From contig CAYITW010000004.1 in the NCBI GenBank assembly GCA_964366395.1, positions 1-23,778 on the forward strand: a stretch of 23,778 bases of DNA, in the 5' to 3' direction. Of this stretch, positions 1,063-19,548 are shown piece after piece. Position numbers and translations under genes: made by a program. Below the pieces are notes generated by a model that ran no database searches, was not told where the DNA came from, and saw nothing but the letters and a program-made list of their open reading frames with translations. Position 1 is the stretch's first letter. Each line of letters starts with the position of its first letter. Origin of the DNA: an uncultured Candidatus Saccharibacteria bacterium (lineage in GTDB: Bacteria; Patescibacteriota; Minisyncoccia; Phycocordibacterales; DATDWN01).

Positions 1063-1455
1063 CTATTTTGTACTCTGAAGTATGTCTGTTATTTTTTTGA
1101 CAATTCCATCCAGACTTAAATCAGTTTTTATGATGTAGCCGTAAACATTGCTATCCATAGCTTTAGCGATATAGGTGGCCTCATCAAGAAGAGATAGAAC
1201 CATAACCTTTGCTTCTTTACCCCACTCGGTCTCTCTTAGTTGTTTTAGCATTTCAAGACCATCCATCACGGGCATAACCAAATCAAGTAGTATGATGTCG
1301 GGCTTAAACTCTAGCGCTTTCTTGAGTCCATCTTCTCCGTTAACTGCACCCATTGCATCAAAACCTGAAAGGTTGAACTTATCAACCAAAACACTGGTCA
1401 AATTATTATTATCATCAACAATAAGAACTTTCTTTTTGCTTTTTATTTTATCCAT
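1063..1455 (-). CDS. single-domain response regulator (CheY-like receiver domain only)
   Basis: ORF track. KVLIVDDN ... phospho-acceptor region PDIILLDLVMP ... conserved K in YIIK. 130 aa with no output domain. Starts 23 nt downstream of the histidine kinase stop (HK-RR operon). Confidence 0.85.
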   Translation of the reverse strand: MDKIKSKKKVLIVDDNNNLTSVLVDKFNLSGFDAMGAVNGEDGLKKALEFKPDIILLDLVMPVMDGLEMLKQLRETEWGKEAKVMVLSLLDEATYIAKAMDSNVYGYIIKTDLSLDGIVKKITDILQSTK

Positions 1456-1478
1456 ATTATTGTTATCTATTATATAGG

Positions 1479-2804
1479 TTAAAGTGTAATTGTAAAAGCA
1501 CTTCCTTTATTTTCCTGAGAAACAAAACTAATACTTCCGCCAATAGAGTCCATAACGGATTTTACTAAATACAAACCTAAGCCTGTACCTTGGCTATCAT
1601 TTAGTCCACGAACATTATCTGCCCTAAATAATTTAGTGAAAATCAAACCTTGCTGGGATTCGGGTATGCCCAAACCTGTATCTGAAACTGTGATTGTTTT
1701 TTCTCCACTTGATTCTTCAAAAGTGACAGCTATTGTACCTCCACTTGGAGTATATTTTAGAGCATTCGTTATCAAGTTTTGAATTACAATACGCAACAAC
1801 TTTGGGTCACTTTGTATGTTTTGAAACAACCCATTGTATTCTTTGACGATGTTGATTTGTTTTTTATTAATAAGAAAAGCGAGTTCACCAAAAATACTTT
1901 CAGTTAGTTCTTCTACGTTAGTCTGTTTCATATCTACAGTAAGAGAGCCCATCTCTATTCTTGAAACGTTAAGAAGAACGTCCACAAGGTCAATCATGTC
2001 TTCGTTGGCAGTATGCAACTTATCAACATACTCTTTATGTTTAGGGGAAAGCTCCCCGATATCTCCAGATGCCAACATCTCTGTGAGCCATTTTGTTGTG
2101 GCTAGTGGAGATCTTAGTTGATGTGAGGCCAGAGACACGAATTCTGTTTTCGCCTTGTCTAGTAGTTTCTGCTCTGTAATATCAAAAATCATAGCGAGTC
2201 CTGTGCTTGAAAAACTACCAGGATTTTTCATTTCAAAAATAGAGAGTTGAACAATGCGAGTCTCACCCTTTTTTGTAATCATTGAAACCTCCTTTCTGTT
2301 TATAGGCACATTTGACTTGTAGTAATCGAAAAGCCTCTCCGCCTGCTCCTTATCCTCTCCAGTTAAATATGAAAATAAATTTTTACCGACAATGTCTTCT
2401 GGGAGCACACTAAAAAAACGCAACGCAGCTTTGTTTGGACCACGAATCTCCGCATTTTTATCCAGCATGATGTAGGGCACTGGGGCACTATCATAAAGCC
2501 TTTTGAATTGTTCCTTTGAGAGTGCCAAATCCTTAGTTGCATTCCAAATTTCTAAATGGAACCGAGTATTGTTTGTAAGTAGTAAATAAATTACATATGA
2601 AATTAAAACAAAAATAACAGTAAGACCAATGAAAACCGTCACGAAATATATTTCAGCAGACTCCAAACCGCTTAAAAAATAATCTTGGGGATTAGAAATA
2701 AAATTTTTTATAAAATTTCTTGACAGAAAAAGGGTAGAAAGCAAGACAAGTAGAATGACGACAGAAGTTAGTAGATGTTTAAGATAATTTTTAACTGGAG
2801 ACAT
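1479..2804 (-). CDS. sensor histidine kinase: two N-terminal TM helices, PAS domain, HisKA (H-box SHQLRSPL), HATPase_c (G-box GTGLGLYLV)
   Basis: ORF track. ATG confirmed at 2802-2804. Hydrophobic N-terminus, PAS-like middle, canonical H-box and G1/G2 boxes. Confidence 0.9.
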   Translation of the reverse strand: MSPVKNYLKHLLTSVVILLVLLSTLFLSRNFIKNFISNPQDYFLSGLESAEIYFVTVFIGLTVIFVLISYVIYLLLTNNTRFHLEIWNATKDLALSKEQFKRLYDSAPVPYIMLDKNAEIRGPNKAALRFFSVLPEDIVGKNLFSYLTGEDKEQAERLFDYYKSNVPINRKEVSMITKKGETRIVQLSIFEMKNPGSFSSTGLAMIFDITEQKLLDKAKTEFVSLASHQLRSPLATTKWLTEMLASGDIGELSPKHKEYVDKLHTANEDMIDLVDVLLNVSRIEMGSLTVDMKQTNVEELTESIFGELAFLINKKQINIVKEYNGLFQNIQSDPKLLRIVIQNLITNALKYTPSGGTIAVTFEESSGEKTITVSDTGLGIPESQQGLIFTKLFRADNVRGLNDSQGTGLGLYLVKSVMDSIGGSISFVSQENKGSAFTITL

Positions 2805-2830: not shown

Positions 2831-2868
2831 AAAAGAAAAAGCTCAGTTGGATTTTACCCCAACCGAGC
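2831..2868 (-). terminator. rho-independent terminator of the MVP-homolog transcript (minus strand: GCTCGGTTGG-ggtaaaat-CCAACTGAGC followed by TTTTTCTTTT)
   Basis: 10-bp stem (9 Watson-Crick pairs plus one mismatch) with a T-tract on the minus strand. Sits between the MVP stop (2892) and the histidine kinase start (2804). Confidence 0.6.
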
Positions 2869-2891
2869 CTATGTCTATTTGTACAAAGTAA

Positions 2892-5459
2892 CTAGACTCT
2901 TGCTGCGCCCACGCCAACGCGTGCGCGAGAGCCGAGAGCCTTCATTGCATCTTCAAGAGGTGTTCCCTTGAAAAGCTGTCCGAGAATGTCAACTGTGCTG
3001 ACACCACTCAGTGCTGCCATTGGTCCAAGTGCTGTAGAGATTCTCTCCACCAATGCGTTGTCGGAGAGAGTGGTCAATGCAACAGAGAGCTTGTCGTCAA
3101 TCGCACCTGCGCGCTTGACGATGTCCTCAGTTTCAGCAAGCATCCGTTTGATCTCGAGCTCGATTTCAAGTCTCTTTGTTTCGAGCTTCTGATCATCAGC
3201 GATTTTCCTTCGAGCAACGTCAGCAAGGTTCAACTCGTCACGAGTTGCCCCTTCGGCAACTTGGTCAGCGAGTTTCCTGCTGGCAACTCGAGCCTCAGCT
3301 TCGATTCGAGCCAGATTGGTAGCGAGAGTGAACTCGATACCTTCTTTCTCGATTTCAGCCAAAGCTTCAGTTGTTTCTGCTGTCGCAGTTGCCTTGTTGC
3401 GCTTGATTTCCTCGGAGCGAACGGTTAGTGCGAGCTCACGTTCTTCCTTGGAAATACGAAGTGCACCTTGCAATGCTTCAGTTTGAGCACCGACAAGGAG
3501 TGCGGCGACTGTGCTGTTGTTGATCTTGACGTCCAAGACCTCAACATCATAGACGCGCATTCCATTTTCGACCATGGTACGACCCGCTCGCTTGCTCTTC
3601 TCATCCTGAATTCCGAGAACAGCATCACGAATGATGTCGATTGCCTTGGCGTAGAAAACTTCCACACCATGGTGTTTTGCGGTGTTGCGAATCAGTGACC
3701 GCAAATGGTCAACAAGGAACCTAACGTAGTTCTCAACTGCGAACCACCTCTCGGGTTCATCACCCTCGAAGTTGACTCGATATGAGAGATTGATGTCCAA
3801 CTGAACAAGATCAAGTGTTTCCACTTTGACAACATCCGAGACCTTGTTGTTCTTCACTCGCAGATACGCGGTGCCGAGCAATTTGTCATCGGTTTTCGGG
3901 GTACCAGTGGACAGTTCCATCGGCATCAGGTTTTCGTCGTACTGCAGAAGGATCGTTGCCGGTCCCTGCACAACTCGACGAGCACCTGACTTACTGACAA
4001 CCAGAACAGCGTAGCCCGTCCACACATCAATCGCCACAGCTCCCTCATACTTCGTATCGAGAGTTACTGTGCGTGGAGGTGTAAACGTAGTCCCGCGAGT
4101 GAATGATTCCGAAACAAGATGTTCCGGACCTCTGCCTCTCGAGGTGTATGCTGCCGCATTTCGCAACGAAGCTTCCGTCTGGAGATACTCTCCAGCAGGA
4201 AGATCTTTGCTTTGTGCAAGAAGTTCCTGATTGACCTGAAGTGCACGCTGGTTTCCTGGATACCAAAGACCAACGGTCTTTAGATCAAGAATCCGACGAA
4301 TGATTACTTCCTTGCGCGGATCCGGAAGAAGCATGGTTGGTCCATTGACCAAACGTACTTCACCCTTGTTCCGATCGAGGATATAACGCCCTTCACCTGC
4401 AGGCACAGCAACAGCATAGTGAATCGTCTGATCCCCATACTTGATGATGCTGTGTTCCTCACGTGGAAAGTAAATCGCCTGATCCTTCCCAGTGATGAAG
4501 AGTTCGTCACCCACCTTATGGTGTGTGGCTTCCTCTCCTTCGCCTTCAGTGTAGTCAGCGATGACCTTCACGTAGATTCCGCTGTTTTCGTTCAATTCGA
4601 TTGCGCGGAACTTTCGGTTGTCACCCTTGCTTACAAATGTTTCCGTTGGTGCGGGAAACACGACGTCTGGTCCTTGCACGTAGCGCTTGTTGCCGTCTTC
4701 GTTAAGAAGAATGCAGTACTCAAGTCGCTCGAGCGTAACCGCTTCGCGAACGTACGTTTCTCCTTTTTCCGTCTGTTCCGGAATAACTTCCACGCCGGTA
4801 GGCGGAATAAAGAAAGCGACTTCAGTTCCCTCGATCACCATGAGTTGCCCCATGGTAAATTCGGTGGGAGCTGACGTTTTTGTAAGCTTTGCTGCTGTCG
4901 CAGGTTGAGTCTGTACGACTTCTGGAAGTTTCTGCTCTCCACCCTCTCCACCTGGATCAGATTTCAAACCAGTTGGCTGTTGTGGTTTCAGAACCGCCTT
5001 GCCCCAGTTTGCCCGTGCTTCTTCGTCGTTGTAGACGCGAACCACGAGATACTGGTTTGAACGAAGATGGTGACCCTCAATCACTTTCGCCGTTTGTCCC
5101 GGCCAAAGTGGAAAATGAGTCGGTCCAGGAATGTTGATCCTGCGACCCATCTTTAGAGACACCATTACACTCGACGAACCTTCACGAGGGTGCTCTTCCT
5201 TGGTTGCATCCACTGGATTCGTCAGGACAAGATAGAACCCCTCAGGCGCATTTGGGTATGCCTGTATTGCTTCAGAAGCATCACACCTTTGAAAACGACG
5301 CGCTGATGGATCCCATTTGACCGGTTGGTCGGTATCCGACATGCTCGTTTTGTTTGGACCGACATTGACATTGATATGTCCCTTTGTCGTATCCAGCACA
5401 AACGCGAACTCACCTGGAGCGAGAACTAAGTCTCGACCCCTTCCCATGCTATCCGCCAT
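2892..5459 (-). CDS. Major Vault Protein (MVP) homolog, full-length architecture: N-terminal MVP/vault repeats, shoulder (SPFH-like) domain, long A/E/R-rich cap-helix, cap-ring tail
   Basis: ORF track; ATG at 5457-5459 with AAGGGAG 4-5 nt upstream. N-terminus LVLAPGEFAFVLDTTKGHINVNVGPNKT matches the eukaryotic MVP repeat-1 motif ([28 protein letters not shown]). A later repeat, RYILDRNKGEVRLVNGPTMLLPDPRKEV, matches [25 protein letters not shown]. The shoulder region FAVENYVRFLVDHLRSLIRNTAKHHGVEVFYAKAIDIIRDAVLG ... VYDVEVLDVKINN matches the MVP shoulder. A roughly 130-aa coiled coil follows. Eukaryotic MVP sequences are recalled from memory. Confidence 0.85.
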   Translation of the reverse strand: MADSMGRGRDLVLAPGEFAFVLDTTKGHINVNVGPNKTSMSDTDQPVKWDPSARRFQRCDASEAIQAYPNAPEGFYLVLTNPVDATKEEHPREGSSSVMVSLKMGRRINIPGPTHFPLWPGQTAKVIEGHHLRSNQYLVVRVYNDEEARANWGKAVLKPQQPTGLKSDPGGEGGEQKLPEVVQTQPATAAKLTKTSAPTEFTMGQLMVIEGTEVAFFIPPTGVEVIPEQTEKGETYVREAVTLERLEYCILLNEDGNKRYVQGPDVVFPAPTETFVSKGDNRKFRAIELNENSGIYVKVIADYTEGEGEEATHHKVGDELFITGKDQAIYFPREEHSIIKYGDQTIHYAVAVPAGEGRYILDRNKGEVRLVNGPTMLLPDPRKEVIIRRILDLKTVGLWYPGNQRALQVNQELLAQSKDLPAGEYLQTEASLRNAAAYTSRGRGPEHLVSESFTRGTTFTPPRTVTLDTKYEGAVAIDVWTGYAVLVVSKSGARRVVQGPATILLQYDENLMPMELSTGTPKTDDKLLGTAYLRVKNNKVSDVVKVETLDLVQLDINLSYRVNFEGDEPERWFAVENYVRFLVDHLRSLIRNTAKHHGVEVFYAKAIDIIRDAVLGIQDEKSKRAGRTMVENGMRVYDVEVLDVKINNSTVAALLVGAQTEALQGALRISKEERELALTVRSEEIKRNKATATAETTEALAEIEKEGIEFTLATNLARIEAEARVASRKLADQVAEGATRDELNLADVARRKIADDQKLETKRLEIELEIKRMLAETEDIVKRAGAIDDKLSVALTTLSDNALVERISTALGPMAALSGVSTVDILGQLFKGTPLEDAMKALGSRARVGVGAARV

Positions 5460-5539
5460 TGATACTCCCTTCTAGTTGACTTACTTTGTTTTGAAAGAAC
5501 ACTCCAAACCAGAGAACTTCTCGGGTTTGGACACCCAGA

Positions 5540-5567
5540 ATACTAATCATTCTTGTCCTTTTGTCAA
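5540..5567 (-). promoter_or_regulatory. sigma70-like promoter for the MVP homolog (minus strand TTGACA-16 nt-TAGTAT)
   Basis: Perfect -35 hexamer (plus-strand tgtcaa at 5562-5567) with 16-nt spacer and a 4/6 -10 hexamer (plus atacta at 5540-5545). About 80 nt upstream of the MVP ATG. Read by eye. Confidence 0.45.
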
Positions 5568-5601
5568 ATATTTATTTGGCTGAAATTTCACTCAAATTTG
5601 T

Positions 5602-5633
5602 ATAAAAAACACCGTCTGGTTTTACCCAGACGG
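5602..5633 (-). terminator. rho-independent terminator ending the NfeD-flotillin-CA-like operon (minus strand CCGTCTGG-gtaaaa-CCAGACGG + TGTTTTTTAT)
   Basis: Perfect 8-bp GC-rich stem immediately followed by a T-tract on the minus strand. Located 33 nt downstream of the 5666 stop codon. Confidence 0.7.
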
Positions 5634-5665
5634 CGCGTTGTGCCGAGAACTTTAGAGCCTAGGCC

Positions 5666-6319
5666 CTAAAGTTTTTCGAACACAACTGATGTACGATTGG
5701 AGTCAGCGAACTTCGCGAAGTATTGCTCAATCACAAGGTGACGAGGAAACACTCCGAGAAGATGTTGCGCGACTGAAGCAAGATCAAGCCGTTGCCTGTC
5801 CACCATATTCTTCACCGCTGTGAAGAAAAATGGTGCAGCCTTTTGCAACAACTTGTACTTTCCACAATCCTCATGGTTGATCAGGATCACCCGATCAATC
5901 GATGAGAACTGATTGACGTAGTTGACGGCACCTTCCGTGACATACCTCGTTTCTTTTGGAAAGAAGTTGCCAACGGTGAATGATGCTGCACCTCCACGAA
6001 TAACGAACGGAAGGTACTGACCTTCCTTTACGCCGATTTCCCTTTCGAGAAACTGACGAATCGGACCTTGAAAGCGAGGATCTCCACAGAAGATTGCCAG
6101 TACACGAGGTGTGGCAGTTGCGGTTGTTTGGTAGGCTTTCGGCCCCCTTACTTCCACAACAGGTTCTGTTCTTCGAATTGGAATCTCGTCTTTTTCGATA
6201 ACTCCAGCACTGGCATCATCTTGCTCAACCGCTTGAACCGTAGGTCTGGGTGGTTGAGATGCTGCACTACTTGCGCCTGGTCGTGATCTTTTTTGATCCA
6301 TTCTGTTTTTTCCTTTCAT
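5666..6319 (-). CDS. beta-carbonic-anhydrase-like protein (CxDxR ... HxxCG zinc-site motifs) with disordered Pro/Ala/Ser-rich N-terminal extension; start more likely the ATG at 6301 (AAAGGAAAA upstream) than 6319
   Basis: ORF track. Motifs FCGDPRF (Cys-x-Asp-x-Arg), FVIRGG (compare beta-CA FVxRNAGN) and VILINHEDCG (compare beta-CA hhhGHxxCG). The spacing between them is about 70 residues. Last gene of the flotillin operon. The assignment is by motif only. Confidence 0.5.
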   Translation of the reverse strand: MKGKNRMDQKRSRPGASSAASQPPRPTVQAVEQDDASAGVIEKDEIPIRRTEPVVEVRGPKAYQTTATATPRVLAIFCGDPRFQGPIRQFLEREIGVKEGQYLPFVIRGGAASFTVGNFFPKETRYVTEGAVNYVNQFSSIDRVILINHEDCGKYKLLQKAAPFFFTAVKNMVDRQRLDLASVAQHLLGVFPRHLVIEQYFAKFADSNRTSVVFEKL

Positions 6320-6352
6320 GAGGGAGGATGGATTTTACTCCACCCTCCCTCA
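6319..6352. promoter_or_regulatory. intercistronic perfect 9-bp GC-rich inverted repeat (TGAGGGAGG ... CCTCCCTCA, 16-nt loop) between flotillin stop and CA-like gene start
   Basis: Read directly from the sequence. On the minus strand the SD-like GAGGGAGGG arm pairs with a CCUCCCUCA arm that abuts the first in-frame ATG (6319). There is no U-tract, so it is not a terminator. Confidence 0.4.
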
Positions 6353-6367
6353 CAAAAATCGGAAATA

Positions 6368-8011
6368 CTACGAACTCGCCCTCTCAGAGACAGCGTGCCC
6401 CACTGACGGTTTGTCACCGTCTGGTCCCACTCCACTCAGCAAACCTTCAAATCCACTGAGGTCAATGCCCAAGGTCTTTGCGATACCCTGAACATCGATT
6501 CCTTTCGCTTTGAGTTGAGCCAGCGTCTGAAACACGGTGTCGGTCACAAGACCAGACATCTTGTTCATACCCTTACCATCCCCACCCACATCCACGATAC
6601 GGATGGAGTCAATGTTGGCAAGACCAGCTGCGATGGGTCCAAACATTGAACCCAAGAGCTTCGAACCAGCATCTCCGCTCTTTTCGAGAAGAGTGGGCAT
6701 GCGGTCGAGGATGAGGATGAGCTTTGCCGCTGGAGACATTGTCGCCATGGCATCGTTGAGTGCTCGGGTACCCTCTGCTCGCGCAACGAGAACTTCTCGT
6801 TCGCTTGCAGCTTGACCCTTCGCCTGAGCAACGAGGTTGAGCTCGGTAGCTTTCGAGCTACCTTCACCCTCGAGAACAGCCGCGTTCCTTCTGGCTTCAG
6901 CCGTCGTGCGGAGAACTTCCGCTTGAGCTTCGGCATCAAGAATCATCGTCTGCTTGCTAGCTTCGGCGCGCAGAATTGAAGTCGCCTTATCAGCTGTTGC
7001 CTGAGCAATAACTGTCGCTTGCAATTCTGCTGTTCGACGAACACCTTCCTTGGTGGCAACCTCAACTCGTGCCTGCGTTGACGCAGCATCTCGGGCTGCC
7101 TGTGCAACCTGAAGTGTTTGCTCCTGTGCAGCAGTCGCGATCTGACCAGCCATGTTGGCTTCGGCTTGAGCTGTCGATGTTTCCCTCAAGAAATCCGCCT
7201 TTTTCAGGTCCCGATTCTTGCCAGCCTCAGCAACTTTTGCATCGTTGTCTGCTTCGACAAGTGCTGCTGCTGTCCGAGCGTTGGAAACACTGATGTCCTG
7301 GTTGCGCTTTGCTTCGGCGGTTTTCGTTTCCGCTTCAGCTTTAGCGTCCGCAACGGCACGTTTGCCGAGCGCATCGATGTAACCTTCGGCGTCGATGATG
7401 TCTTGGATGACCAAGTTCATCAACTCGATACCAAAGCTCGCAAGTTCGGCAGCGGATTCCTCCACAACCTTCTTGTTGAACTCGTCACGATTTCGGAGAA
7501 GCTCATTGATGTCGAGCTTACCGATAATCGAACGAAGGTGGCCCTTGAGAATGTTCCGAACAAACTCTTCAATGGGATTCGAATCGGTATTTCCCTTTTT
7601 GGGACCGTTGTCCAGAACAAGTTTGTCGACGAGAGCCTCGATAGCTTTTCCGAGATTCTCAGGGTTGGTTGAAATCTTGCAAGTTGCCACTCCAGGCACA
7701 GACAACTTGACGTTGTCTTTGTTTGGAATGTCCTTTTCATTGATTTCAACCTGAAAGGCAGTCGTCGGGATTTCAAGGTAACCTTCCACCAGCGGACGCT
7801 GAATGCGTCCGCCACCGGACATGACCATGAAACCCTTTTGATGACCGTCTTTGTCTTTGTACTTCATGCCGTAGAAGATACCAACCCTTCCAGGAGGAAT
7901 CTTCTTGTAGCGTGAGACAGCGACCTTCAGACCGTAGAGAAACGAAAGGGCAACGACCAAGATGAGAATGGGGATTACCCATCCAACGATAGTGCTGACG
8001 ATTCCTTCCAT
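6368..8011 (-). CDS. flotillin-family SPFH/band-7 protein (YqiK/FloT-like): N-terminal TM anchor, SPFH domain, long Ala/Glu-rich coiled coil, C-terminal flotillin tail
   Basis: ORF track. The listed start at 8017 is GTG. The ATG at 8009-8011 has AAGGAGAG 9 nt upstream. Sequence runs from VGWVIPILILVVALSFLY (TM) through an SPFH core to the EA-repeat region AKAEAETKTAEAKRN... Classic NfeD-flotillin gene order. Confidence 0.85.
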   Translation of the reverse strand: MEGIVSTIVGWVIPILILVVALSFLYGLKVAVSRYKKIPPGRVGIFYGMKYKDKDGHQKGFMVMSGGGRIQRPLVEGYLEIPTTAFQVEINEKDIPNKDNVKLSVPGVATCKISTNPENLGKAIEALVDKLVLDNGPKKGNTDSNPIEEFVRNILKGHLRSIIGKLDINELLRNRDEFNKKVVEESAAELASFGIELMNLVIQDIIDAEGYIDALGKRAVADAKAEAETKTAEAKRNQDISVSNARTAAALVEADNDAKVAEAGKNRDLKKADFLRETSTAQAEANMAGQIATAAQEQTLQVAQAARDAASTQARVEVATKEGVRRTAELQATVIAQATADKATSILRAEASKQTMILDAEAQAEVLRTTAEARRNAAVLEGEGSSKATELNLVAQAKGQAASEREVLVARAEGTRALNDAMATMSPAAKLILILDRMPTLLEKSGDAGSKLLGSMFGPIAAGLANIDSIRIVDVGGDGKGMNKMSGLVTDTVFQTLAQLKAKGIDVQGIAKTLGIDLSGFEGLLSGVGPDGDKPSVGHAVSERASS

Positions 8012-8053
8012 GTGCACACTCTCCTTTTTTTCTGCTTCTTGTTTTAGTTTGAC

Positions 8054-8584
8054 TTACTGTTTGACTTCGACGATGACTTCACTTCCGTTTGTTCGAACTA
8101 TCGTAACTCCACTACCTTTTGGAATTGTAGTTCCATTGGTAGAACGTGCAAGATAGGTACGAACCTGGCCGGCAAGCATGACATCCACACTGCCAACCGA
8201 GGTATTACCGATTTCCACTGTGACAAATCCATTTTTCCCAATGGTTTGGTCAGTGCTAACGAGCGAGTTTGATTGTTGGCTGTATAGCACTCGCAGAATT
8301 GCCAACATGAAAAATCCGAGTAAAGAGCCTGCCACAAGACCGATGAGAGAGGATGCAATCCACCCATAACCGTTCCATGAAGCAATAGCCCCAGCTGCAC
8401 CAAATGCCATGATGAATGAACCAATGACCTTGAGCGAAAAAATGCTCACTGTCGGTTCACCATGAGTGACATCGTGGTCATGATCGTGGTCAAAGTGTGC
8501 ATCATGATCGTGGTCGTGACCAAAAAGGGCACCACCAACAAGCACGACGAAACCTAGAAACACAAGCGCTAGAAAGATAAGCAT
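8054..8584 (-). CDS. NfeD-like membrane protein (short NfeD/YuaF type: TM helices plus C-terminal OB-fold beta domain) carrying an (HD)n His-Asp repeat loop
   Basis: ORF track; ATG at 8582-8584 with AAGGAGA upstream. Three hydrophobic segments, then a C-terminal GFVTVEIGNTSVGSVDVMLAGQVRTYLARS...VIVEV beta-rich domain typical of NfeD. HDHDHDAHFDHDHDHD lies between TM1 and TM2. Positioned immediately upstream of the flotillin gene, as in yuaF-floT. Confidence 0.75.
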   Translation of the reverse strand: MLIFLALVFLGFVVLVGGALFGHDHDHDAHFDHDHDHDVTHGEPTVSIFSLKVIGSFIMAFGAAGAIASWNGYGWIASSLIGLVAGSLLGFFMLAILRVLYSQQSNSLVSTDQTIGKNGFVTVEIGNTSVGSVDVMLAGQVRTYLARSTNGTTIPKGSGVTIVRTNGSEVIVEVKQ

Positions 8585-8705
8585 CGACTTTCGTCTCCTT
8601 TTCCTTTTGTCTACGAGATTGTTATCGAAACTGCTATTAAGCTTGTCGATTTGTTCTTTGTATTAACTCCAATATTACATTTACAAAGAACTAAAACTGT
8701 CGCCA

Positions 8706-8734
8706 ACATTAAACTAAATATTTACTTTTGTCAA
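8706..8734 (-). promoter_or_regulatory. sigma70-like promoter of the NfeD-flotillin-CA-like operon (minus strand TTGACA-17 nt-TAATGT)
   Basis: Plus-strand tgtcaa at 8729-8734 and acatta at 8706-8711 with a 17-nt spacer. About 120 nt upstream of the NfeD ATG in an AT-rich intergenic region. Confidence 0.45.
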
Positions 8735-8865
8735 GGCTTTATTAGTGCCTAAAATAGTGTTGTTATAAGCCATAGTTTTGGGTTTAAAAATTAAACTAAA
8801 TTAATCAATTTTTATATAAAAAAGAAAACTCGCAACCACTTTGGTTACAAGTTTTTGAGAACAAA

Positions 8866-9081
8866 CTACCCTGGTTCTGCAAACGGGATGAAATTCTCCG
8901 CTCGAGTTCGCAACGGTCGTCCAGAGAAACGCCTCTGAATACGTCTGCCTCCCTTAGTTGGTTCGCATTCGTTGCCTTCGCGGTTTTTGTGAAGCTTGAG
9001 TAAACCCTTGGCGTCTACCTCAACCGCTAGCACACAGGTTGGACACAAACCGACAAGAATGGATTCATCAGATTTTCTCAT
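8866..9081 (-). CDS. hypothetical small Cys-containing basic protein (71 aa)
   Basis: ORF track. GAGAGGTG ribosome-binding site 5-6 nt before the ATG. GC content is like the surrounding island. CPTC...C with an Arg-rich C-terminal half. No family recognised. Confidence 0.35.
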   Translation of the reverse strand: MRKSDESILVGLCPTCVLAVEVDAKGLLKLHKNREGNECEPTKGGRRIQRRFSGRPLRTRAENFIPFAEPG

Positions 9082-9136
9082 TTCACACCTCTCTGTTTAG
9101 ATATTATGTAAATAATCTTTTTAAGTCAATCTGGTT

Positions 9137-9174
9137 TTATAAAAAAGAGGACGGCACAAATGTGCACCGCCCTC
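9137..9174 (-). terminator. rho-independent terminator after the LysM-protein gene (minus strand GAGGGCGGTGCAC-a-TTTGTGCCGTCCTC + TTTTTTAT)
   Basis: Imperfect GC-rich hairpin followed by a T-tract on the minus strand, 20 nt after the 9196 stop. Confidence 0.5.
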
Positions 9175-9195
9175 GCCAATTTTTACTTTCTGCCC

Positions 9196-10572
9196 TTACT
9201 TCTTCTTACCGAACATAGTCCGAAGGTCAAGTTTGACCGTTGGACCACATGAGGTTGGACTGGATTTTGAATTGTGTTCGTTTACGCATTCATAACCCAA
9301 CTTAAGGTTGAGAACTCCGCTCTGCCAAGGGTAAGCAAAGCTTAATCCTGTTCCAAATGTGTTGCGGTTATTCCAAGGGTAACCCTTGGAATCTGCGCTC
9401 GTCACGATCCATCCAGTTGGACTGACAAGAACTTTCCTGATTTGCATCATGGTAAGTCCTTGTTCCAAATGAATGGCGCCAATGAGATTCCCTCGTTCGT
9501 AGGGTGAAATGTATCCAGCATTCCACTCCACAAAACCAGGGGCTGTGAAGGTCCCGCTTTCAGACGAAGGGGTTTTCTGTTGCCAGAAAAACTGTCCAGT
9601 ACTGAAAGCCACTACGCCGAGTTTACTTTTCCCGAAACCCTTACTCCCCAAGCCTTCACGACGGCTCTCGAGAGCAACTGCTCCAGCGAACTCTATTTCG
9701 CCATGGGTGAAGGATTTGACGAATTTCAAACCCGTCTCAATTTCCACCCTATTATTCTGTGGTCGCCCTTTAGCGTCCTGCATGGCATTTAATGCCGTGT
9801 AATACAGAACCTCTCCCCCTCTAAATCGAGAGGCGACAATCCCTGCATCAACGTGAAAGGTGTCGATTTTGTTTCCATTGTCTTTTGGAGTGATGTCGTA
9901 AAAATTCCAAAAGTTTCCACGAGTTTGGAATTTCCGCTCTTCACTTGTGGTCAATGGCAGATTCTGTGGTACTACTGCAGGCAGAGGCTTAGACTCTTCC
10001 ACAAATCGTGGCGTTGGTGTGGACACTGGTGCTTCCTGCACAACAGACGTTTCAGCCGTCTTCGGGCGAAATGTCACAGTTCCTCCTAACCTTGCTGGAG
10101 GAGTAGCATGCACAATTAGAACTTCTGGTTCTTCTTGTGTCAGCATCTTCTCCGTCGAAGGAATCTTTTTGGTTGCAGTTTTCTTTCCTGTTCGTGCAAC
10201 TTTTGATTCCTTCACTAAAACAGTGGACAGATTGCAAAGAGTCATCGGAATCCGCAGTACCTGACCCACGTGAATCACGTACGGAGACTTGATGTCGTTG
10301 ACTTCAGCAATCAACTGGTAGAGGTAACCTCTGCCACCATATTCGTGCTCGGCAATTCTCCAAAGAGAGTTACCGCGAATTACGACGTAGGTCCTGTCAA
10401 TGCAGGCAGGTACCTCAATAACTTTGGATGTGGGTCCAACAACCGGTGTTGGCACAGCTACCACTTGACTCGGAACTGGGATGGGTTTTCCAGACGGCAA
10501 CCAATAGTGACCGATAGCTACACCCACCACAATACCAACAAGAAGCGTGACTAGGTTAAACAACTTCAGCAT
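9196..10572 (-). CDS. LysM domain protein with N-terminal signal-anchor, Pro/Thr-rich linker and a ~250-aa beta-rich (possibly barrel-like) C-terminal domain
   Basis: ORF track. AAAGGGGAG ribosome-binding site. LysM signature YVVIRGNSLWRIAEHEYGG...YQLIAEVNDIKSPYVIHVGQVLRIP. The C-terminal domain shows alternating hydrophobic beta-strand patterning and is not assigned to a family. Confidence 0.8.
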   Translation of the reverse strand: MLKLFNLVTLLVGIVVGVAIGHYWLPSGKPIPVPSQVVAVPTPVVGPTSKVIEVPACIDRTYVVIRGNSLWRIAEHEYGGRGYLYQLIAEVNDIKSPYVIHVGQVLRIPMTLCNLSTVLVKESKVARTGKKTATKKIPSTEKMLTQEEPEVLIVHATPPARLGGTVTFRPKTAETSVVQEAPVSTPTPRFVEESKPLPAVVPQNLPLTTSEERKFQTRGNFWNFYDITPKDNGNKIDTFHVDAGIVASRFRGGEVLYYTALNAMQDAKGRPQNNRVEIETGLKFVKSFTHGEIEFAGAVALESRREGLGSKGFGKSKLGVVAFSTGQFFWQQKTPSSESGTFTAPGFVEWNAGYISPYERGNLIGAIHLEQGLTMMQIRKVLVSPTGWIVTSADSKGYPWNNRNTFGTGLSFAYPWQSGVLNLKLGYECVNEHNSKSSPTSCGPTVKLDLRTMFGKKK

Positions 10573-10634
10573 CTTACTCCCCTTTCAAATAGTGTTTCGT
10601 ACTTAGCCCTTTTCAAATTACTGGCTTTCAAATC

Positions 10635-10661
10635 TATACAACAAAGAACTTCTTCGTTGTA
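10635..10661. promoter_or_regulatory. near-perfect 13-bp-arm palindrome ATACAACAAAGAA-c-TTCTTCGTTGTAT in the LysM-gene upstream region (candidate operator)
   Basis: Read directly from the sequence: 12 of 13 arm positions are complementary. Located 60-90 nt upstream of the 10572 start. Confidence 0.3.
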
Positions 10662-10709
10662 TGCCGAAAGACATCTGTCAGTATTACTACCATAAAATTT
10701 ATATTTTGT

Positions 10710-11288
10710 CTAGTATGCCTTCTTCCCATATTCTATAAATTTTTGCACCCACTTAGCACGATTTTCGGGAGATATTTTTTTCATGGGTCCGCATTTCTTC
10801 ATTTTTGTGTGAAAACCCGCAAACCAAAGAATTCCGTCTTGTATCTCATTTGTATTATCCCCAAAAAGAAACCGAGCGAGGAGTGGTGGAGAATCAGAAG
10901 TAACAAACACCCGAGCTGTTCTACCTTTCAAAAGTCTTTGCCAACCAATACCACTTGGGAGAAATTTATACGCAAATCCAGGAAGCCACGCTCTATCAAA
11001 AAGTCCTTTAAGAAGCGCGGGCATAGTTGACCACCAGGATGGGTAAATAATTACAAAATGATCACACCATCTTACATCTTGCTGAAACTGCTTTAAATCT
11101 GGTTCAAGTTCCTGAATAACTTTGTACCCATGATGTAGAATCGGGTCAAATTTCATATTACCAAGATTGACAATTTTTACTTCGTTGCCCTTTGACCTAG
11201 CCCCTTCTACATACGCGTTACCAAAATCTCGGCACATACTTTCTGTATCCGGATGCCCAACTAAAACAAGAATTTTTCGATATTTCAT
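10710..11288 (-). CDS. flavodoxin-like fold NAD(P)H dehydrogenase (quinone)/FMN-dependent reductase (Flavodoxin_2 family)
   Basis: ORF track (listed to 11312 with a GTG start). The likely start is the ATG at 11286-11288, giving MKYRKILVLVGHPDTESMCRDF..., the typical N-terminus of this family. Also WLPGFAYKF ... FVTSDSP. Confidence 0.8.
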   Translation of the reverse strand: MKYRKILVLVGHPDTESMCRDFGNAYVEGARSKGNEVKIVNLGNMKFDPILHHGYKVIQELEPDLKQFQQDVRWCDHFVIIYPSWWSTMPALLKGLFDRAWLPGFAYKFLPSGIGWQRLLKGRTARVFVTSDSPPLLARFLFGDNTNEIQDGILWFAGFHTKMKKCGPMKKISPENRAKWVQKFIEYGKKAY

Positions 11289-11377
11289 CTTAAATAATTC
11301 TATCATTTCCACTTAGTGTAGTCTATGTGGAAAGAAAATATAAAAAGCAAAAAAATGTGATACAGTTAAAAGAAACA

Positions 11378-12229
11378 ATGAACTTCTATTCTTCGAAGAA
11401 AAAACAAGTTAAACAAAAAAGAAAGTACTCTGGTATGGGTTGGCGGGTTATTGTTGCTCTATTTCTCGTCTCTTTCGGAAGTTTTTTAGGAATGATTTAT
11501 TACTACGACTTTGATTTAAAACTTCTGGCGACTCTAGAATTTTATGAAAATCTTGCCAATCCATCAATCCGTATAGTAAAAATCCAAGAAGGCTTACGGA
11601 AGGAGGAAATTGCTGATATTGTCGCAAAAAAACTCAACTGGAGTGAAAAAATAAAGGAAGAATTCATAAATGTGCATCTAGCACTAAATAGTAACAATTT
11701 GGAGGGAAAATACTTTCCGAAGACATATATGATTCCAAAAGATGAAGACCCGATTGGAGTTACAGCAGCTATGCTGAGAGAATTTTCAAAAGAAACGGCC
11801 GCGGTGAAAAAACCCAAATCAGCTCAAGTGATAAGCCAAGACACCGCACTTAAAATTGCCTCGATTATTCAAAGAGAGGCTGGTGGCAAAAGTGATATGA
11901 AGTTAATTTCTGGAATAATCTGGAACCGTCTTTTTAATGGAATGAAACTTCAAATAGACGCGACACTTCAATACGCAAAGGGCTCGGAAGAAGATGGTTG
12001 GTGGCAAAAGGTTGTGCCTAATGATAAAAATATTGACTCTTTTTATAATACATATTTATACACTGGTCTTCCCCCATCACCCATAGCTAATCCTGGAATT
12101 GCCGCAATCGATGCTGCCTACAATCCTCAAAAAACAAGTTGTATATTTTATCTTCACGACAAAAAAGGGAAAATTCACTGCACTAAAACTTATGAGGAGC
12201 ATAAAAGGAATATAGAGAGGTACTACTGA
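11378..12229 (+). CDS. mltG: endolytic murein transglycosylase MltG (YceG family)
   Basis: ORF track (listed from the GTG at 11327). The first ATG is at 11378. N-terminal TM segment, conserved ASIIQREAG, LQIDATLQYA and YNTYLYTGLPPSPIANPG motifs characteristic of YceG/MltG. Confidence 0.85.
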   Translation: MNFYSSKKKQVKQKRKYSGMGWRVIVALFLVSFGSFLGMIYYYDFDLKLLATLEFYENLANPSIRIVKIQEGLRKEEIADIVAKKLNWSEKIKEEFINVHLALNSNNLEGKYFPKTYMIPKDEDPIGVTAAMLREFSKETAAVKKPKSAQVISQDTALKIASIIQREAGGKSDMKLISGIIWNRLFNGMKLQIDATLQYAKGSEEDGWWQKVVPNDKNIDSFYNTYLYTGLPPSPIANPGIAAIDAAYNPQKTSCIFYLHDKKGKIHCTKTYEEHKRNIERYY

Positions 12230-12408
12230 TAAACTTCTTACTCGACACATATTTTAAAAAGCAATCTATCTAGCTCTTCTGAGCTAGCGAACTTCTCGTC
12301 GTTCAAGAAAATAATTGTCGGAATACCTCCCTTATTTTCTAAACTCCTGCGAAAGGCTTTTCTCAATATGTGATCTCGACGAAGTTTATAAGAAGATGGG
12401 ATGGAAAC

Positions 12409-12440
12409 AAAAAACCGGGCGCGCAAGGCGACCGGTTTTG
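12409..12440. terminator. bidirectional rho-independent terminator (AAAAAA-CCGGGCGC-gcaag-GCGACCGG-TTTT)
   Basis: GC-rich 8-position stem (7 pairs plus one mismatch), with an A-tract on the 5' side and a T-tract on the 3' side. Ends the mltG transcript on the plus strand and the 12631-12446 unit on the minus strand. Confidence 0.6.
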
Positions 12441-12445
12441 AGACA

Positions 12446-12631
12446 CTACAGGCCAGAGATTGTTGGGACAATCACGCCTGCAGTCATAGAATCCTTGCTC
12501 AAAGCAAGAACATTCTGAATCGTCTCAAAGAACACGAGGAGGGTGCTCTCGAGACCCGAAAAAATTTTCGGGGTAAGGAACTTAAGCACGACAATCGCCA
12601 GTCCAAGCCCCAAAACGCTAAGTATTTTCAT
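12446..12631 (-). CDS. hypothetical small hydrophobic-N-terminus protein (61 aa); coding status doubtful (no SD)
   Basis: ORF track. MKILSVLGLGLAIVVLKF is signal/TM-like. A terminator follows immediately after the stop. However, there is no purine-rich ribosome-binding site, unlike neighbouring genes. Confidence 0.25.
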   Translation of the reverse strand: MKILSVLGLGLAIVVLKFLTPKIFSGLESTLLVFFETIQNVLALSKDSMTAGVIVPTISGL

Positions 12632-16333: not shown

Positions 16334-16406
16334 GGGCCCTTAGCTTAGTTGGTAGAGCGCCTCATTTGCAATGAGGAGGTCACCAGTTCGAATCTGGTAG
16401 GGTCCA
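16334..16406 (+). tRNA. tRNA-Ala (anticodon UGC), 73 nt, CCA not encoded
   Basis: Cloverleaf folded by hand. Acceptor GGGCCCT/AGGGTCC with the G3:U70 Ala identity pair. D-arm GCTT-AGTTGGTA-GAGC. Anticodon stem CCTCA/TGAGG with loop TTTGCAA. T-arm ACCAG-TTCGAAT-CTGGT. Discriminator A. Confidence 0.9.
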
Positions 16407-16414
16407 CAGACGAC

Positions 16415-16640: not shown

Positions 16641-17327
16641 TCATCCATAAACTACCTCGTGGGGTAGCTCAAGGAGTATGTTTTGTGTTTGAAGGAGTAT
16701 CTCTTTGTGGTCAACACCAGAAAATTTTCTGGGACATCCAACCCTAACCGTTTTGGTGGATGAATCCACCCAGACTGGAACCATTCTGACACCTGGCATA
16801 GAAACTAGGTGAGTAAAACCGTTACGAAGTGGTTTTATTTTCCTATTTCCATCCCTACTGTAGAGATGTCTATTGCCTCTCTGTCCCTTAGTGACTTTGT
16901 CAGTTCTAGCCCCTTCTGGAAAGATGACAATGTTACCACCTGAATCCAGATGAGCTTCAGCAGAAACCAGACTCCACGAATCACCAGCATTCCGCTTCTT
17001 CCCAACAAAAATGAAAACGGGCCAAACGATCCAAGTGAGCATAGCCCACCAAGTGTGAAAAACGCTTCTCTTGTTTGCCAATATCCGTGGCATATATTTC
17101 GGGCTAAAGGTGTAGTGGGGGCGAAATAGTCCTGGCACAAGAACGGTTTCAATTATTCCAGGGTGATTAGACACTAGTACAATTTTACCGCTCTCCTTTG
17201 GGAAGTTTTCTCGTCCGTTAACCCTCCAAAAACCACTAAACCAAAAGAGTTCAACCGCACCACCAATCACATTTCCCGCAATGGGGTATGTGACGAGGTA
17301 AAACACAATAACCTTAAGTATCTCCAT
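16641..17327 (-). CDS. PlsC-family 1-acyl-sn-glycerol-3-phosphate/lysophospholipid acyltransferase (NHPGIIE H(x)4E variant box, FPEGAR box)
   Basis: ORF track (listed to a TTG at 17381). Likely ATG at 17325-17327 with GGAGAGGGG upstream. Acyltransferase boxes I and III recognisable. Confidence 0.7.
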   Translation of the reverse strand: MEILKVIVFYLVTYPIAGNVIGGAVELFWFSGFWRVNGRENFPKESGKIVLVSNHPGIIETVLVPGLFRPHYTFSPKYMPRILANKRSVFHTWWAMLTWIVWPVFIFVGKKRNAGDSWSLVSAEAHLDSGGNIVIFPEGARTDKVTKGQRGNRHLYSRDGNRKIKPLRNGFTHLVSMPGVRMVPVWVDSSTKTVRVGCPRKFSGVDHKEILLQTQNILLELPHEVVYG

Positions 17328-17441
17328 CACACCCCTCTCCGGCCACGATACTAACACAAAAGCGCTTGTATTCAAAACCAATTTCTAAATATAAATAAAT
17401 GGGACCCAGCGAACTTTCGCTCGCTGGATCCCCTATTAGCC

Positions 17442-18149
17442 TCACGCCACCCTGTCAGCTGTCTCAAGGAAGATCTGTTCCATTTCCTCTACCACTTCCT
17501 TTTTATTTCTGCCATAGAAATCCCTCGGCTCGGAAATGACAAGCTTCATCTTGAAGAAGCTCTCGTATTCGAACCAGACGATTACAGTGACGACACCAGG
17601 TACCTCAGTTGCATATCGCGCGGCGCCATTTTTCAAGCACCGGATTTTGCGACCCGTTTTGCTTGTGAGAAAATGCTTGCCCTCCACCTTCGGCTCGCTA
17701 TCTCCTGTTGGCATCTCACCTGTTCCTTTTGGAGTTCTTCCTCCTTCTGGGAAACCAATAAGATTTCCTCCAGCTTCCAGCTTGCTTAGGGCAATCCTCT
17801 GACTTTCCACGTCCTTACCGCCACGTTCCGCCAGTATTAGCCTGCCCTCAATGAATGGCGTGAACCACCTGTCCCCGTAGTTCTCCTTAGCTGCAATACT
17901 CCACGGACCAAGTTTCGGTCGTATGATGTATTGCTTCAACCAAAAAAGACCGTTGAGGATGAAGTGCTCACCTTTGTAAGGGTGGTTTGAGGCAAGATAG
18001 ATTTTACCTTTTTGTTTTGGAAAATTCTCCAGGCCTTTGATTTCCAAGAACCCGAGAGCAGACCAAATTTCAAACCACAACCCTATCACAGATCCAATAC
18101 AAAGGAATGTGACAAGGTAATACACGAGACGTTTTCTAAGTTCTCTCAT
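17442..18149 (-). CDS. PlsC-family acyltransferase, tandem paralog of the downstream gene (NHPYKGE, FPEGGR boxes)
   Basis: ORF track (listed to a TTG at 18167). Likely ATG at 18147-18149 with AAAGGGGA upstream. Collinear similarity to 16641-17327: SNHP..., GGN(I/L)(V/I)(I/G)FPEG(A/G)RT, NG....(V/M)PGV..V.VW. Confidence 0.7.
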   Translation of the reverse strand: MRELRKRLVYYLVTFLCIGSVIGLWFEIWSALGFLEIKGLENFPKQKGKIYLASNHPYKGEHFILNGLFWLKQYIIRPKLGPWSIAAKENYGDRWFTPFIEGRLILAERGGKDVESQRIALSKLEAGGNLIGFPEGGRTPKGTGEMPTGDSEPKVEGKHFLTSKTGRKIRCLKNGAARYATEVPGVVTVIVWFEYESFFKMKLVISEPRDFYGRNKKEVVEEMEQIFLETADRVA

Positions 18150-18183
18150 CACATCCCCTTTCTGCAAATGATACTACCACAAA

Positions 18184-19176: not shown

Positions 19177-19211
19177 GTAAAATTTTCAATCCTCAATTTT
19201 TAGATAAGAAA

Positions 19212-19232
19212 AAAGGACCCCGAGGAGTCCTT
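19212..19232 (-). terminator. intrinsic terminator/expression-platform hairpin between the structured leader and ddl (minus strand GGAC-t-CC-tcg-GG-GTCC + TTTTTTCTT)
   Basis: GC-rich hairpin followed by a T-tract of 6 on the minus strand, 36 nt upstream of the ddl ATG at 19176. Confidence 0.5.
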
Positions 19233-19519
19233 CGAACGTGTGAGTGTCTTACCGGCGCGTGCTGAATGACAAAACTGAAACAGAGTCGAGTTTTTGAAGA
19301 GAGGAGTCATGGTTGTCTTCGAACCTTTGCAGTTTTACCCGCTAGATTGTAGAACTACCTTTGCCCTTCCTTACAAATTCCATCTCTTGTCTTTCGACTT
19401 GAGCTGGCGTCATTGTGTTTCCTCCGAGTTTTACCCCAGTGGATCCCTCCGACAACTTGAACACTTTCTCGAGTTCGTCACCAGCCCGTGCCGATAAGCT
19501 ACTCAGTTGTTCTGGAGCT
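19233..19519 (-). promoter_or_regulatory. candidate riboswitch-like structured leader/ncRNA upstream of ddl with pseudo-twofold internal repeats (GGGTAAAACT x2; TCGA(G)AAAG...GGA(G/A)GG x2)
   Basis: About 50% GC in an AT-rich neighbourhood. Has its own sigma70-like promoter and a downstream terminator. Repeated half-sites are visible on the minus strand, with a CTCGGAGGAAAC segment resembling c-di-AMP (ydaO) riboswitch cores recalled from memory. Confidence 0.3.
19342..19413 (-). other. 23-codon ORF MTPAQVERQEMEFVRKGKGSSTI with a perfect SD (GGAGGAAACACA-ATG) embedded in the structured leader; leader peptide or coincidental
   Basis: Codons verified base-by-base on the minus strand. GGAGG lies 7 nt upstream of the ATG. 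The GGAGG may instead be part of the conserved RNA core. Confidence 0.2.
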
Positions 19520-19548
19520 ACTGTATACCCATTCTAAAAACAAGTCAA
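19520..19548 (-). promoter_or_regulatory. sigma70-like promoter (minus strand TTGACT-17 nt-TACAGT) driving the structured leader/ddl
   Basis: Plus-strand agtcaa at 19543-19548 and actgta at 19520-19525. 37 nt downstream of the uvrC stop. Confidence 0.35.

Follow-up and report, generated by a model that had tools for sequence, protein, structure and literature searches.

What the eukaryotic vault does has been asked since 1986, and genetic work in eukaryotes has left the question open. Here we describe a bacterial member of the family of its shell protein, the major vault protein (MVP). It is encoded in a stretch of 23,778 nt of contig CAYITW010000004.1, called the window below, as an MVP-family coding sequence of 855 amino acids (aa) on the minus strand at 2892..5459 (ATG start, stop codon at 2892-2894), as read from the list of open reading frames and the translation.

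Daly et al. (2013) reported seven non-cyanobacterial bacterial homologues with about 25% identity to eukaryotic MVP, for which they predicted the folding and docking of MVP (PMC3762200); bacterial homologues were also analysed in silico by Sokolskyi in 2019 (10.1101/872010). The members of this ‘chemotrophic’ clade include Corallococcus H8MNI3, Plesiocystis A6FXM1/A6FXE2, Microscilla A1ZGE7, Saprospira H6L4P8, Flexibacter I4AHY9 and Herpetosiphon A9AUD4 (PMC3762200; 10.1101/872010). Cyanobacterial MVPs (Moorea/Lyngbya F4Y3B4, Oscillatoria K9TKX8, Microcoleus K9WB38) share >50% identity with eukaryotic MVP and fall together with Amoebozoa, probably as the outcome of eukaryote-to-bacterium transfer (PMC3762200; 10.1101/872010). 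Two gut phage MVPs appeared in a 2023 preprint (10.1101/2023.11.10.566534), and a 2026 paper on Asgard homologues with five repeats described prokaryotic ones as known ‘in only a few Bacteria’ (PMC12962969). In the literature searched we found no experimental work on any prokaryotic member, in line with the statement of an earlier, preliminary description of this sequence that no bacterial member has a known function, and no paper that links MVP to bacteria of the candidate phyla radiation (CPR) or to jumbo or huge phages. The family of the window gene, which occurs in bacteria and phages, is large and has been catalogued before, so that the gene is not a discovery; it adds one more clean full-length example and leaves the kind of gene unchanged.

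Compared with eukaryotic MVP (rat and human; PDB 4V60, 4HL8, 9BW5, 9MXJ), the window protein has the same domain order and nearly equal length. The R1 and R2 motifs, R6-R9, the SxGxPK loop, the shoulder, the cap helix of ~135-150 residues and part of the cap ring align, whereas an insertion of ~55 aa in repeat 3 sets the bacterial protein apart. With the chemotrophic clade it shares the family, the Pfam signature (Vault_3 and MVP_shoulder, sometimes with Band_7) and a stand-alone gene; full-length identity is about 50% to proteins of Saprospira, Microscillaceae, Nannocystaceae and Enhygromyxa metagenome-assembled genomes (MAGs) and 75% to its closest relative, annotated as ‘major vault protein’ in Parcubacteria group bacterium Gr01-1014_20. 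It differs from the chemotrophic-clade relatives only in host lineage, in a long, 37-aa hypervariable loop and in the flotillin/NfeD cluster that adjoins it. Unlike the cyanobacterial MVPs, from which it is set apart by published descriptions, it falls into another, deeply divergent bacterial clade. Asgard homologues, compared by description only, likewise have a cap helix, a shoulder and fewer repeats and are known by prediction, but for their representative a 10-mer cup with five repeats per chain was modelled (PMC12962969), as against about seven predicted repeats and a single-chain model here. Phage homologues (gut Caudoviricetes ctOa11/ct2Ri15; LR756500/LR756501) are full-length, belong to the same bacterial-type clade and are 40-48% identical; they sit on viral genomes, whereas the window is without phage genes. 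The membrane SPFH cages (HflK/C-FtsH, flotillin, QmcA-YbbJ/NfeD, prohibitin, stomatin, erlin) also combine an SPFH-type domain with a following long helix, which in them closes a multimeric dome. These proteins are membrane-anchored and lack an N-terminal beta-repeat wall, whereas here no anchor is present and 536 repeat residues precede the SPFH domain.

Family membership, domain architecture and transcription signals

The gene is an intact, full-length, end-to-end member of the MVP family (SPFH clan) in a bacterial genome. The Pfam model MVP_shoulder (PF11978) matched residues 537-646 with 94.4 bits against a cut-off of 25 (E 6.2e-27, model positions 2-116 of 118), and Vault_3 (PF17795, R9-type) matched residues 492-526 with 37.8 bits against a cut-off of 28.8 (E 2.1e-9). 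An overlapping Band_7 (PF01145) match was weak (18.1 bits, cut-off 23.6, E 0.003), and no NCBIfam model matched the protein. Among PDB sequences MVP chains were the only matches, with E 5e-13 in phmmer and 4e-28 with a profile of 66 bacterial homologues. Aligned by hhalign to 15 vertebrate MVPs (alignment A2, in which the human MVP query was confirmed at 100% identity), the alignment of the 66 bacterial homologues (A1) gave 99.7% probability and E 6.8e-26 over 501 aligned columns. It pairs window residues 239-812 with human 272-826, starting at repeat 6 and continuing over R9, the shoulder and the cap helix into the cap ring, with residues 239-536 opposite human 272-519 (R6-R9). A separate N-terminal alignment of residues 4-243 to human 1-176 (R1-R3) had 80% probability and takes in the VLD...V.VGP.KT and FPLWPGQ/FPLYPGE motifs.

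Structure comparison points the same way. Foldseek against the PDB returned human, rabbit and rat MVP chains with whole-chain alignments (E 3e-32 to 1e-25), matched the N-terminal beta domains to the murine R1-R7 crystal structure 3gf5 (E 1e-11), and listed flotillin, HflK/C, prohibitin, QmcA, erlin and stomatin as next best (E 1e-7 to 1e-5). The preliminary description had read the product as a full-length MVP homologue instead of an isolated SPFH domain and had proposed the comparison with rat MVP; both the profile alignments and the whole-chain structural matches bear it out, and neither of the outcomes that it had named as contrary, an SPFH match alone or an N-terminal region lacking stacked beta repeats, was obtained. 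The motifs that it quoted are likewise all present in the translation: the repeat motifs LVLAPGEFAFVLD...VNVGPNKT at residues 11-38 and RYILDRNKGEVRLVNGPTMLLPDP at 358-381, and the shoulder motifs FAVENYVRFLVDHLRSLIRNTAK at 573-595 and VYDVEVLDVKINN at 636-648. Identity to eukaryotic MVP is 18-25%; alignments to bacterial homologues have full coverage (100%) at 50-75% identity, and identity stays at 50-55% over repeats and shoulder across phyla, from CPR to Myxococcota, Chloroflexota and Bacteroidota. More than 100 columns are invariant in the 66 sequences, and conservation per 20 aa ranges from 0.6 to 0.9, save for two loops and the cap helix. Such strong conservation over the whole length would be consistent with pressure on a tightly packed shell.

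The domain order is that of MVP: about seven beta repeats, an SPFH-like shoulder, a cap helix of ~136 residues and a helical C-terminal domain. A single-chain AlphaFold2 (AF2) model built on A1, with helices assigned by DSSP, has a mean predicted local distance difference test score (pLDDT) of 73 and values of about 90 in R1-R3, R9 and the shoulder; disorder is predicted at residues 164-191 and 436-471 (pLDDT <50) and at 779-802. The N-terminal beta-repeat region (residues 4-536; 3852..5450, minus strand), delimited by hhalign, per-repeat profile mapping, AF2 strands and Foldseek, is modelled as all-beta up to residue 536, with modules at roughly 4-60, 61-115, 116-238, 239-290, 291-342, 343-471 and 472-536. 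Human residues 177-271, most of R4 and R5, are without counterpart in the two hhalign alignments. From profile alignments and secondary structure we put the repeat count, with moderate confidence, at about seven instead of nine, and in this respect the end-to-end equivalence to the eukaryotic protein that the preliminary description had claimed does not extend to the repeat region.

Two disordered loops lie in the repeat region. In the third repeat, residues ~143-200 (4860..5033, minus strand) form an insertion between strands beta2 and beta3, recognised by pLDDT and by an hhalign gap opposite human 133/134, that consists of a short helix followed by a disordered Pro/Ala/Thr/Gly/Glu-rich linker. 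The Gly/Glu/Pro-rich insertion that had been singled out earlier (residues ~160-200) is real and predicted to be disordered, and it corresponds to a family-wide hypervariable loop: across the 66 homologues this loop measures 5-41 aa, is rich in Pro/Ala/Thr/Gly/Glu/Ser and unconserved, and has a median net charge of -2, the window protein having a long version (37 aa). The second disordered loop, residues 436-471 (4047..4154, minus strand; pLDDT <50), belongs to a repeat-8-like module, varies between 30 and 69 aa in the family and aligns with the human R8 loop region.

Further along the chain, a loop of sequence S-T-G-T-P-K (residues 517-522; 3894..3911, minus strand) aligns to the human keyhole loop S-A-G-R-P-K (501-506), which binds the NAD+ diphosphate. 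Residues S517, T518, P521 and K522 are invariant in the 66 bacterial homologues; the backbone motif of the loop is common to domains of life, and the basic residues around it are not. The SPFH-like shoulder (residues 537-648; 3516..3851, minus strand), defined by the Pfam match and modelled at a pLDDT of about 90, passes into the cap helix (residues 649-784; 3108..3515, minus strand), a single uninterrupted Ala/Glu/Leu/Arg/Lys-rich helix that DSSP assigns on the AF2 model and that aligns to the human cap helix at 647-~800; its length is kept in the family (110-143 aa). The C-terminal helical, cap-ring-like domain (residues 785-855; 2895..3107, minus strand) has helices at 790-818, 822-829 and 834-844 with low pLDDT and holds motifs conserved in the family consensus. 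A cap helix of ~130 aa with a cap-ring tail, as described earlier, is thereby recovered in the model. No transmembrane (TM)-like segment, signal peptide or strongly hydrophobic stretch was found in the protein (maximal Kyte-Doolittle 19-residue mean 1.19), and the product is predicted to be soluble.

The expression signals named in the preliminary description were all located. A sigma-70-like promoter, TTGACA-16-TAGTAT (5540..5567, minus strand), has 10 of 12 consensus matches and the correct intergenic position for the MVP gene; the scan as a whole gave no excess of promoter-like sites in the region, with five found and 5.4 expected from shuffled sequences. Both hexamers align with TTGACA-16-TATAAC 5' of the 75%-identical homologue in a Parcubacteria MAG (locus L002), where the upstream genes are not the same as in the window. 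The leader of ~80 nt (5460..5539, minus strand) contains a GGGAG Shine-Dalgarno sequence (5469..5465, minus strand) 6 nt 5' of the ATG. An intrinsic-terminator-like hairpin with T-run (2839..2870, minus strand; 13-pair stem with 6 GC pairs) lies 21 nt 3' of the stop codon. Another terminator-like hairpin with T-run (5609..5636, minus strand; 11-pair stem with 7 GC pairs) closes the upstream gene for a 217-aa protein and stands between it and the MVP transcription unit. With the promoter aligned in L002 and terminators on both flanks, the MVP gene therefore looks like a self-contained transcription unit; ‘expressed’ and ‘functional’, the words used for it earlier, are putative terms inferred from these sequence signals only. 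The leader also contains a hairpin, CCAAACCCGAGAA...TTCTCTGGTTTGG (5495-5531, minus strand), and a shorter one, GAGAG...CTCTC, occupies the same place in L002. The folding energy of the hairpin is no better than that of shuffled sequences (z = -1.1), and Rfam gave no match to a regulatory RNA in the leader.

Spread of the family in bacteria and phages

Bacterial MVP homologues, held to be rare in the preliminary description, turned out to be numerous. In a protein database clustered at 90% identity, >6,500 of the 8,000 candidates scored were matches; the best 120 were all full-length and 50-75% identical, and many carry the name ‘major vault protein’ from JGI or NCBI. A phmmer search of 1.84 billion 50%-identity representatives gave 628 clusters at E<=1e-30, and two peptide patterns alone locate the gene in at least 468 species-representative genomes. 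These genomes belong to Parcubacteria, Saccharibacteria, Magasanikiibacteriota, Myxococcota, Desulfobacterota, Chloroflexota, Bacteroidota, Vulcanimicrobiota, Riflebacteria, Sericytochromatia, Bacillota, Planctomycetota and others. In a neighbour-joining tree rooted with human MVP the CPR copies stand together near the base and most other phyla are arranged by taxonomy; the tree is without bootstrap, and long-branch effects are possible.

Full-length homologues were also identified in the uncultured-phage records LR756501, LR756503 and LR756500 (735 kb, 462 kb) with 42-45% identity and 93-97% coverage, encoded at 17359-19608 in LR756501.1, at 20958-23363 in LR756500.1 and also in LR756503.1. 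At least 261 IMG/VR contigs, many of them of 100-500 kb, contain a full-length MVP homologue (loci L085-L164 in our numbering are among them; phage copies 40-58% identical), and the top matches among them, at 53-58% identity, may be misclassified bacterial contigs. Not more than a few kb from MVP, some viral loci encode NUMOD3 homing endonucleases and a T4-type capsid protein (Gp23), among these a Gp23-type fragment. In a few viral contigs a gene of YpsA/SLOG, a predicted nucleotide-ligand-binding family, follows the MVP gene (~160-200 nt downstream in L135, L145 and L146; also in L107 and L147).

The family is thus much larger and wider spread than ‘only a few Bacteria’ (PMC12962969), huge phages included. 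The comparative picture is one of a shorter wall of ~7 predicted repeats, no conserved partner gene and a human NAD+ pocket that is not kept. A single self-sufficient bacterial or phage gene would be a far simpler system for asking what the shell encloses, and the keeping of an 855-aa shell protein in a genome-reduced CPR bacterium implies a real benefit.

A candidate vault-like shell and its alternatives

The locus is a bacterial gene of the MVP branch with its own transcription signals, and we consider it fairly probable that its product is a self-assembling, vault-like dome or cage serving as a general container. Many copies would pack side by side, as in eukaryotic MVP and in every solved SPFH protein; rat and human MVP alone suffices for vaults, and solved SPFH proteins form closed cages (PMC12280208; PDB entries). 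The cap helices would close one end as a helical barrel and the repeats would make up a thin wall, giving a hollow dome (half-vault); two such domes may join via their conserved N-terminal modules to make a closed cage. As the chain has two repeats less, the barrel would be shorter than in rat or human, and the two hypervariable disordered loops may decorate one face of the wall. The neighbourhood counts, which cover the best 80 genome loci of at least 468 genomes and the best 80 viral loci of at least 261 contigs, revealed no conserved partner gene; the shell therefore probably assembles alone and would be a scaffold for general containment or sequestration rather than one component of a machine encoded in an operon.

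Several observations weigh against a vault-like cage. The Vault repeat family PF01505 scored 15.3 bits against a cut-off of 27, and PF17794 and PF17796 (Vault_2, Vault_4) were unmatched, whereas vertebrate MVPs match all five Pfam vault families; in the Pfam check proposed in the preliminary description MVP_shoulder and Vault_3 exceed their cut-offs and these three do not, and hhalign does align R6-R9 (99.7%) and R1-R3 (80%). The pLDDT is only 45-70 at residues 241-345 and below 60 over most of the C-terminal 100 residues, and the cap helix shows little sequence conservation and lacks a clean heptad in its hydrophobic periodicity. The waist residues of human MVP, F6, I7, R9, N22, I36, D39 and N40 (PMC12280208), are replaced by R9, D10, V12, T25, M40, T43 and D44; the half-to-half contact is therefore not conserved in detail. 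Of these, D10, T43 and D44 hardly vary among the bacterial homologues and mark a different, family-conserved surface. TEP1 (TROVE/NACHT/WD40), PARP4 and vault RNA were not found in the 23.8-kb window with Pfam and Rfam. Assembly, stoichiometry and the choice between half and full cage are predictions drawn from eukaryotic MVP and the solved SPFH cages.

A half-dome docked on the membrane, closed by its cap, with an open N-terminal rim on the cytoplasmic membrane face and membrane proteins, for example FtsH or the adjoining flotillin/NfeD system, enclosed or organised by it in place of a free vault of two halves, is another way to read the same fold, and we regard it as unlikely. The shoulder is an SPFH domain, and Foldseek ranks membrane-bound SPFH cages (flotillin, HflK/C-FtsH, QmcA-YbbJ, prohibitin, stomatin) next after MVP; the human half-to-half interface residues are not conserved, and a subpopulation of eukaryotic vaults touches membranes in situ (PMC13100048). 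Genes for NfeD-like, flotillin-like and 217-aa proteins immediately precede the MVP gene in the same orientation, and FtsH is its immediate same-strand neighbour in two CPR loci, L006 and L055. However, the flotillin/NfeD adjacency recurs in 0 of 80 other genome loci and that of FtsH in only two, and in the window a strong terminator and a separate promoter divide the MVP gene from the flotillin cluster. The protein also lacks any TM segment, signal peptide or strongly hydrophobic stretch, and its N-terminal module, which aligns with eukaryotic R1, the maker of the waist, is well conserved. A further alternative is a protein of structural or envelope function, with a long coiled coil or TolA-like, that would not form a cage and would share with MVP only an SPFH domain and a low-complexity helix. 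The weak Band_7 match would fit it, as would the published BLAST similarity between bacterial MVP-like proteins and both TolA domain II and band-7 proteins (10.1101/872010; PMC3762200), but the homology to MVP spans beta repeats and shoulder and not the helix alone, the PDB profile search returned MVP only, and a TM anchor as in TolA is missing, which makes this reading extremely improbable. Eukaryotic contamination or a chimeric assembly, to which the GC content of the MVP region (about 0.50, above most of the contig) might point, is rejected, as the preliminary description had done: identity is 18-20% to human, rat and rabbit MVP as against 75% to a Parcubacteria MAG protein, the uninterrupted reading frame has a bacterial ribosome-binding site, promoter and terminators, CPR-type genes flank it on both sides in one contig, and the same gene occurs on hundreds of bacterial contigs.

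The viral copies raise the question of whether MVP is primarily a mobile gene of large phages that bacteria acquired, serving as an infection compartment, as a protective shell or in the sequestration of nucleotides or NAD-derived molecules. The homologues in LR756501, LR756503, LR756500 and the IMG/VR contigs, the Gp23-type capsid and homing-endonuclease genes near some of them and the two published gut phage MVPs (10.1101/2023.11.10.566534) would fit such an origin, as would an MVP gene that is GC-richer than its flanks in the window and in other CPR loci, with L055 as the extreme. ADP-ribosylglycohydrolase, NUDIX and NAPRTase genes adjoin MVP in L083 and L006, and YpsA/SLOG genes in a few phage loci. 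Nevertheless, the window contains no phage, integrase or defence genes, no flanking repeats and no plasmid match, PHROGs and PADLOC are without match for the protein, and the tree, even if without bootstrap, clusters the CPR copies and most phyla by taxonomy, which fits long bacterial residence. Given also that the top IMG/VR matches are possibly misclassified bacterial contigs and that most residues of the human NAD+/ADP-ribose pocket are not kept, we find this origin quite unlikely. The most far-reaching proposal is that prokaryotic vault-like cages are real, exist in CPR bacteria and in hundreds of huge phages, and are tied to NAD+/ADP-ribose handling, as the eukaryotic vault appears to be; as a whole it strikes us as very unlikely. 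Its hints are the NAD/ADP-ribose genes at two CPR loci, the YpsA/SLOG genes in some phage loci and the invariant backbone of the keyhole loop. If true, the connection between vault and NAD would predate eukaryotes, and phages would be a main vehicle of the MVP gene.

Conservation of the NAD+ pocket was checked residue by residue and rejected for most positions. Human MVP binds NAD+/ADP-ribose between neighbouring shoulders, with R504 to W545 among the contacts (PMC12280208). In the window protein R504 is replaced by T520, R507 by T523, P508 by D524, H509 by D525, R511 by L527, L517 by R534, D521 by N538, F522 by K539 and W545 by V562; of the ten human pocket residues compared, only K506 is identical (K522). 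The basic character of the pocket is gone, and the S-x-G-x-P-K backbone is kept.

Host and gene neighbourhood

The remaining genes of the window are bacterial ones with housekeeping or envelope functions and encode Ddl, UvrC-like, UvrA, two PlsC-type acyltransferases, MltG/YceG, SurA-N-like, PKD and LysM proteins, a PAS histidine kinase and a response regulator. The named best matches of Ddl are all from Zambryskibacteria, Parcubacteria, Paceibacterota or Patescibacteria; the contig is therefore assigned to a CPR bacterium, and the MVP gene appears native to a Parcubacteria-type (CPR/Patescibacteria) genome.

Upstream of the MVP gene, all on the minus strand, lie genes for an NfeD-like membrane protein (176 aa; 8054..8584), a TM-anchored flotillin-like Band_7 protein (549 aa; 6368..8017) and the 217-aa protein (5666..6319), which belongs to no family and has only weak, sub-threshold carbonic-anhydrase-like matches. 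These genes make up a classical SPFH/NfeD unit, and two different SPFH-clan cage proteins, MVP and the flotillin-like one, are thereby neighbours in the window. In tblastn searches the flotillin-like, NfeD-like, 217-aa and LysM genes were found in 0 of the 80 genome MVP loci, where only generic histidine kinase and response regulator matches occurred, and the first three were also not found near MVP in four further metagenomic relatives; the flotillin/NfeD adjacency is peculiar to this window. Unbiased clustering of neighbours within +-6-8 kb placed the commonest family in 10 of 80 genome loci and 7 of 80 viral loci, and a conserved operon partner of MVP was rejected on these counts. On the 3' side, the PAS histidine kinase and single-domain response regulator genes (1063-2804, minus strand) follow MVP on the same strand. 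The same order is present in two closely related myxobacterial loci (L017, 13036-14055; L024, 11131-12147), and may be due to chance, such pairs being very common.

The five consecutive minus-strand genes at 2892-10572 (MVP, 217-aa, flotillin-like, NfeD-like, LysM) have a GC content at third codon positions (GC3) of 0.41-0.54, as against 0.20-0.35 for most other window genes; two PlsC genes at 16641-18167 are also high. The MVP gene itself has a GC3 of 0.49, compared with 0.20-0.35 for housekeeping genes. In seven other CPR loci, too, the GC content of MVP exceeds that of the flanks. In the Magasanikiibacteriota locus L055 the gene (10001-12469) reaches a GC content of 0.63 and a GC3 of 0.89 between flanks of 0.44, which suggests either that it was recently acquired from a high-GC donor or that the assembly is chimeric. 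Around the GC-rich block of the window neither flanking direct or inverted repeats nor a bounding tRNA, an integrase or a plasmid match was found, and a mobile element or island at 2892-10572 was not demonstrated. PADLOC and PHROGs returned nothing relevant for the MVP protein and its neighbours.

Some neighbours at single loci recall known partners of vaults or SPFH cages. FtsH, the client of the SPFH cage HflK/C, is encoded on the same strand 58 nt downstream of MVP in the Saccharibacteria locus L006 (10823-12868) and 199 nt upstream of it in L055 (7979-9802). Genes for ADP-ribosylglycohydrolase-like, NUDIX, nicotinamidase-like, NAPRTase and cytidylyltransferase-like proteins surround MVP in L083 (256-7012), and NAPRTase, NAD synthase, ADP-ribosylglycohydrolase (5e-56) and NUDIX genes precede it in L006 (2984-7984). 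The gene order is not alike in these two loci, and such genes are absent from the other loci examined. NAD-salvage and ADP-ribose neighbours bring to mind the ties of the eukaryotic vault to NAD+/ADP-ribose, PARP4 and TEP1-NADase; they and the FtsH neighbours (n=2 each) are thematic coincidences and leads only.

At the far end of the window, the UvrA reading frame (844 aa; 21243-23777, minus strand) starts one base short of the window end and may be cut short. The sole Rfam match on the window is a tRNA, tRNA-Ala(TGC), at 16334-16407 on the plus strand.

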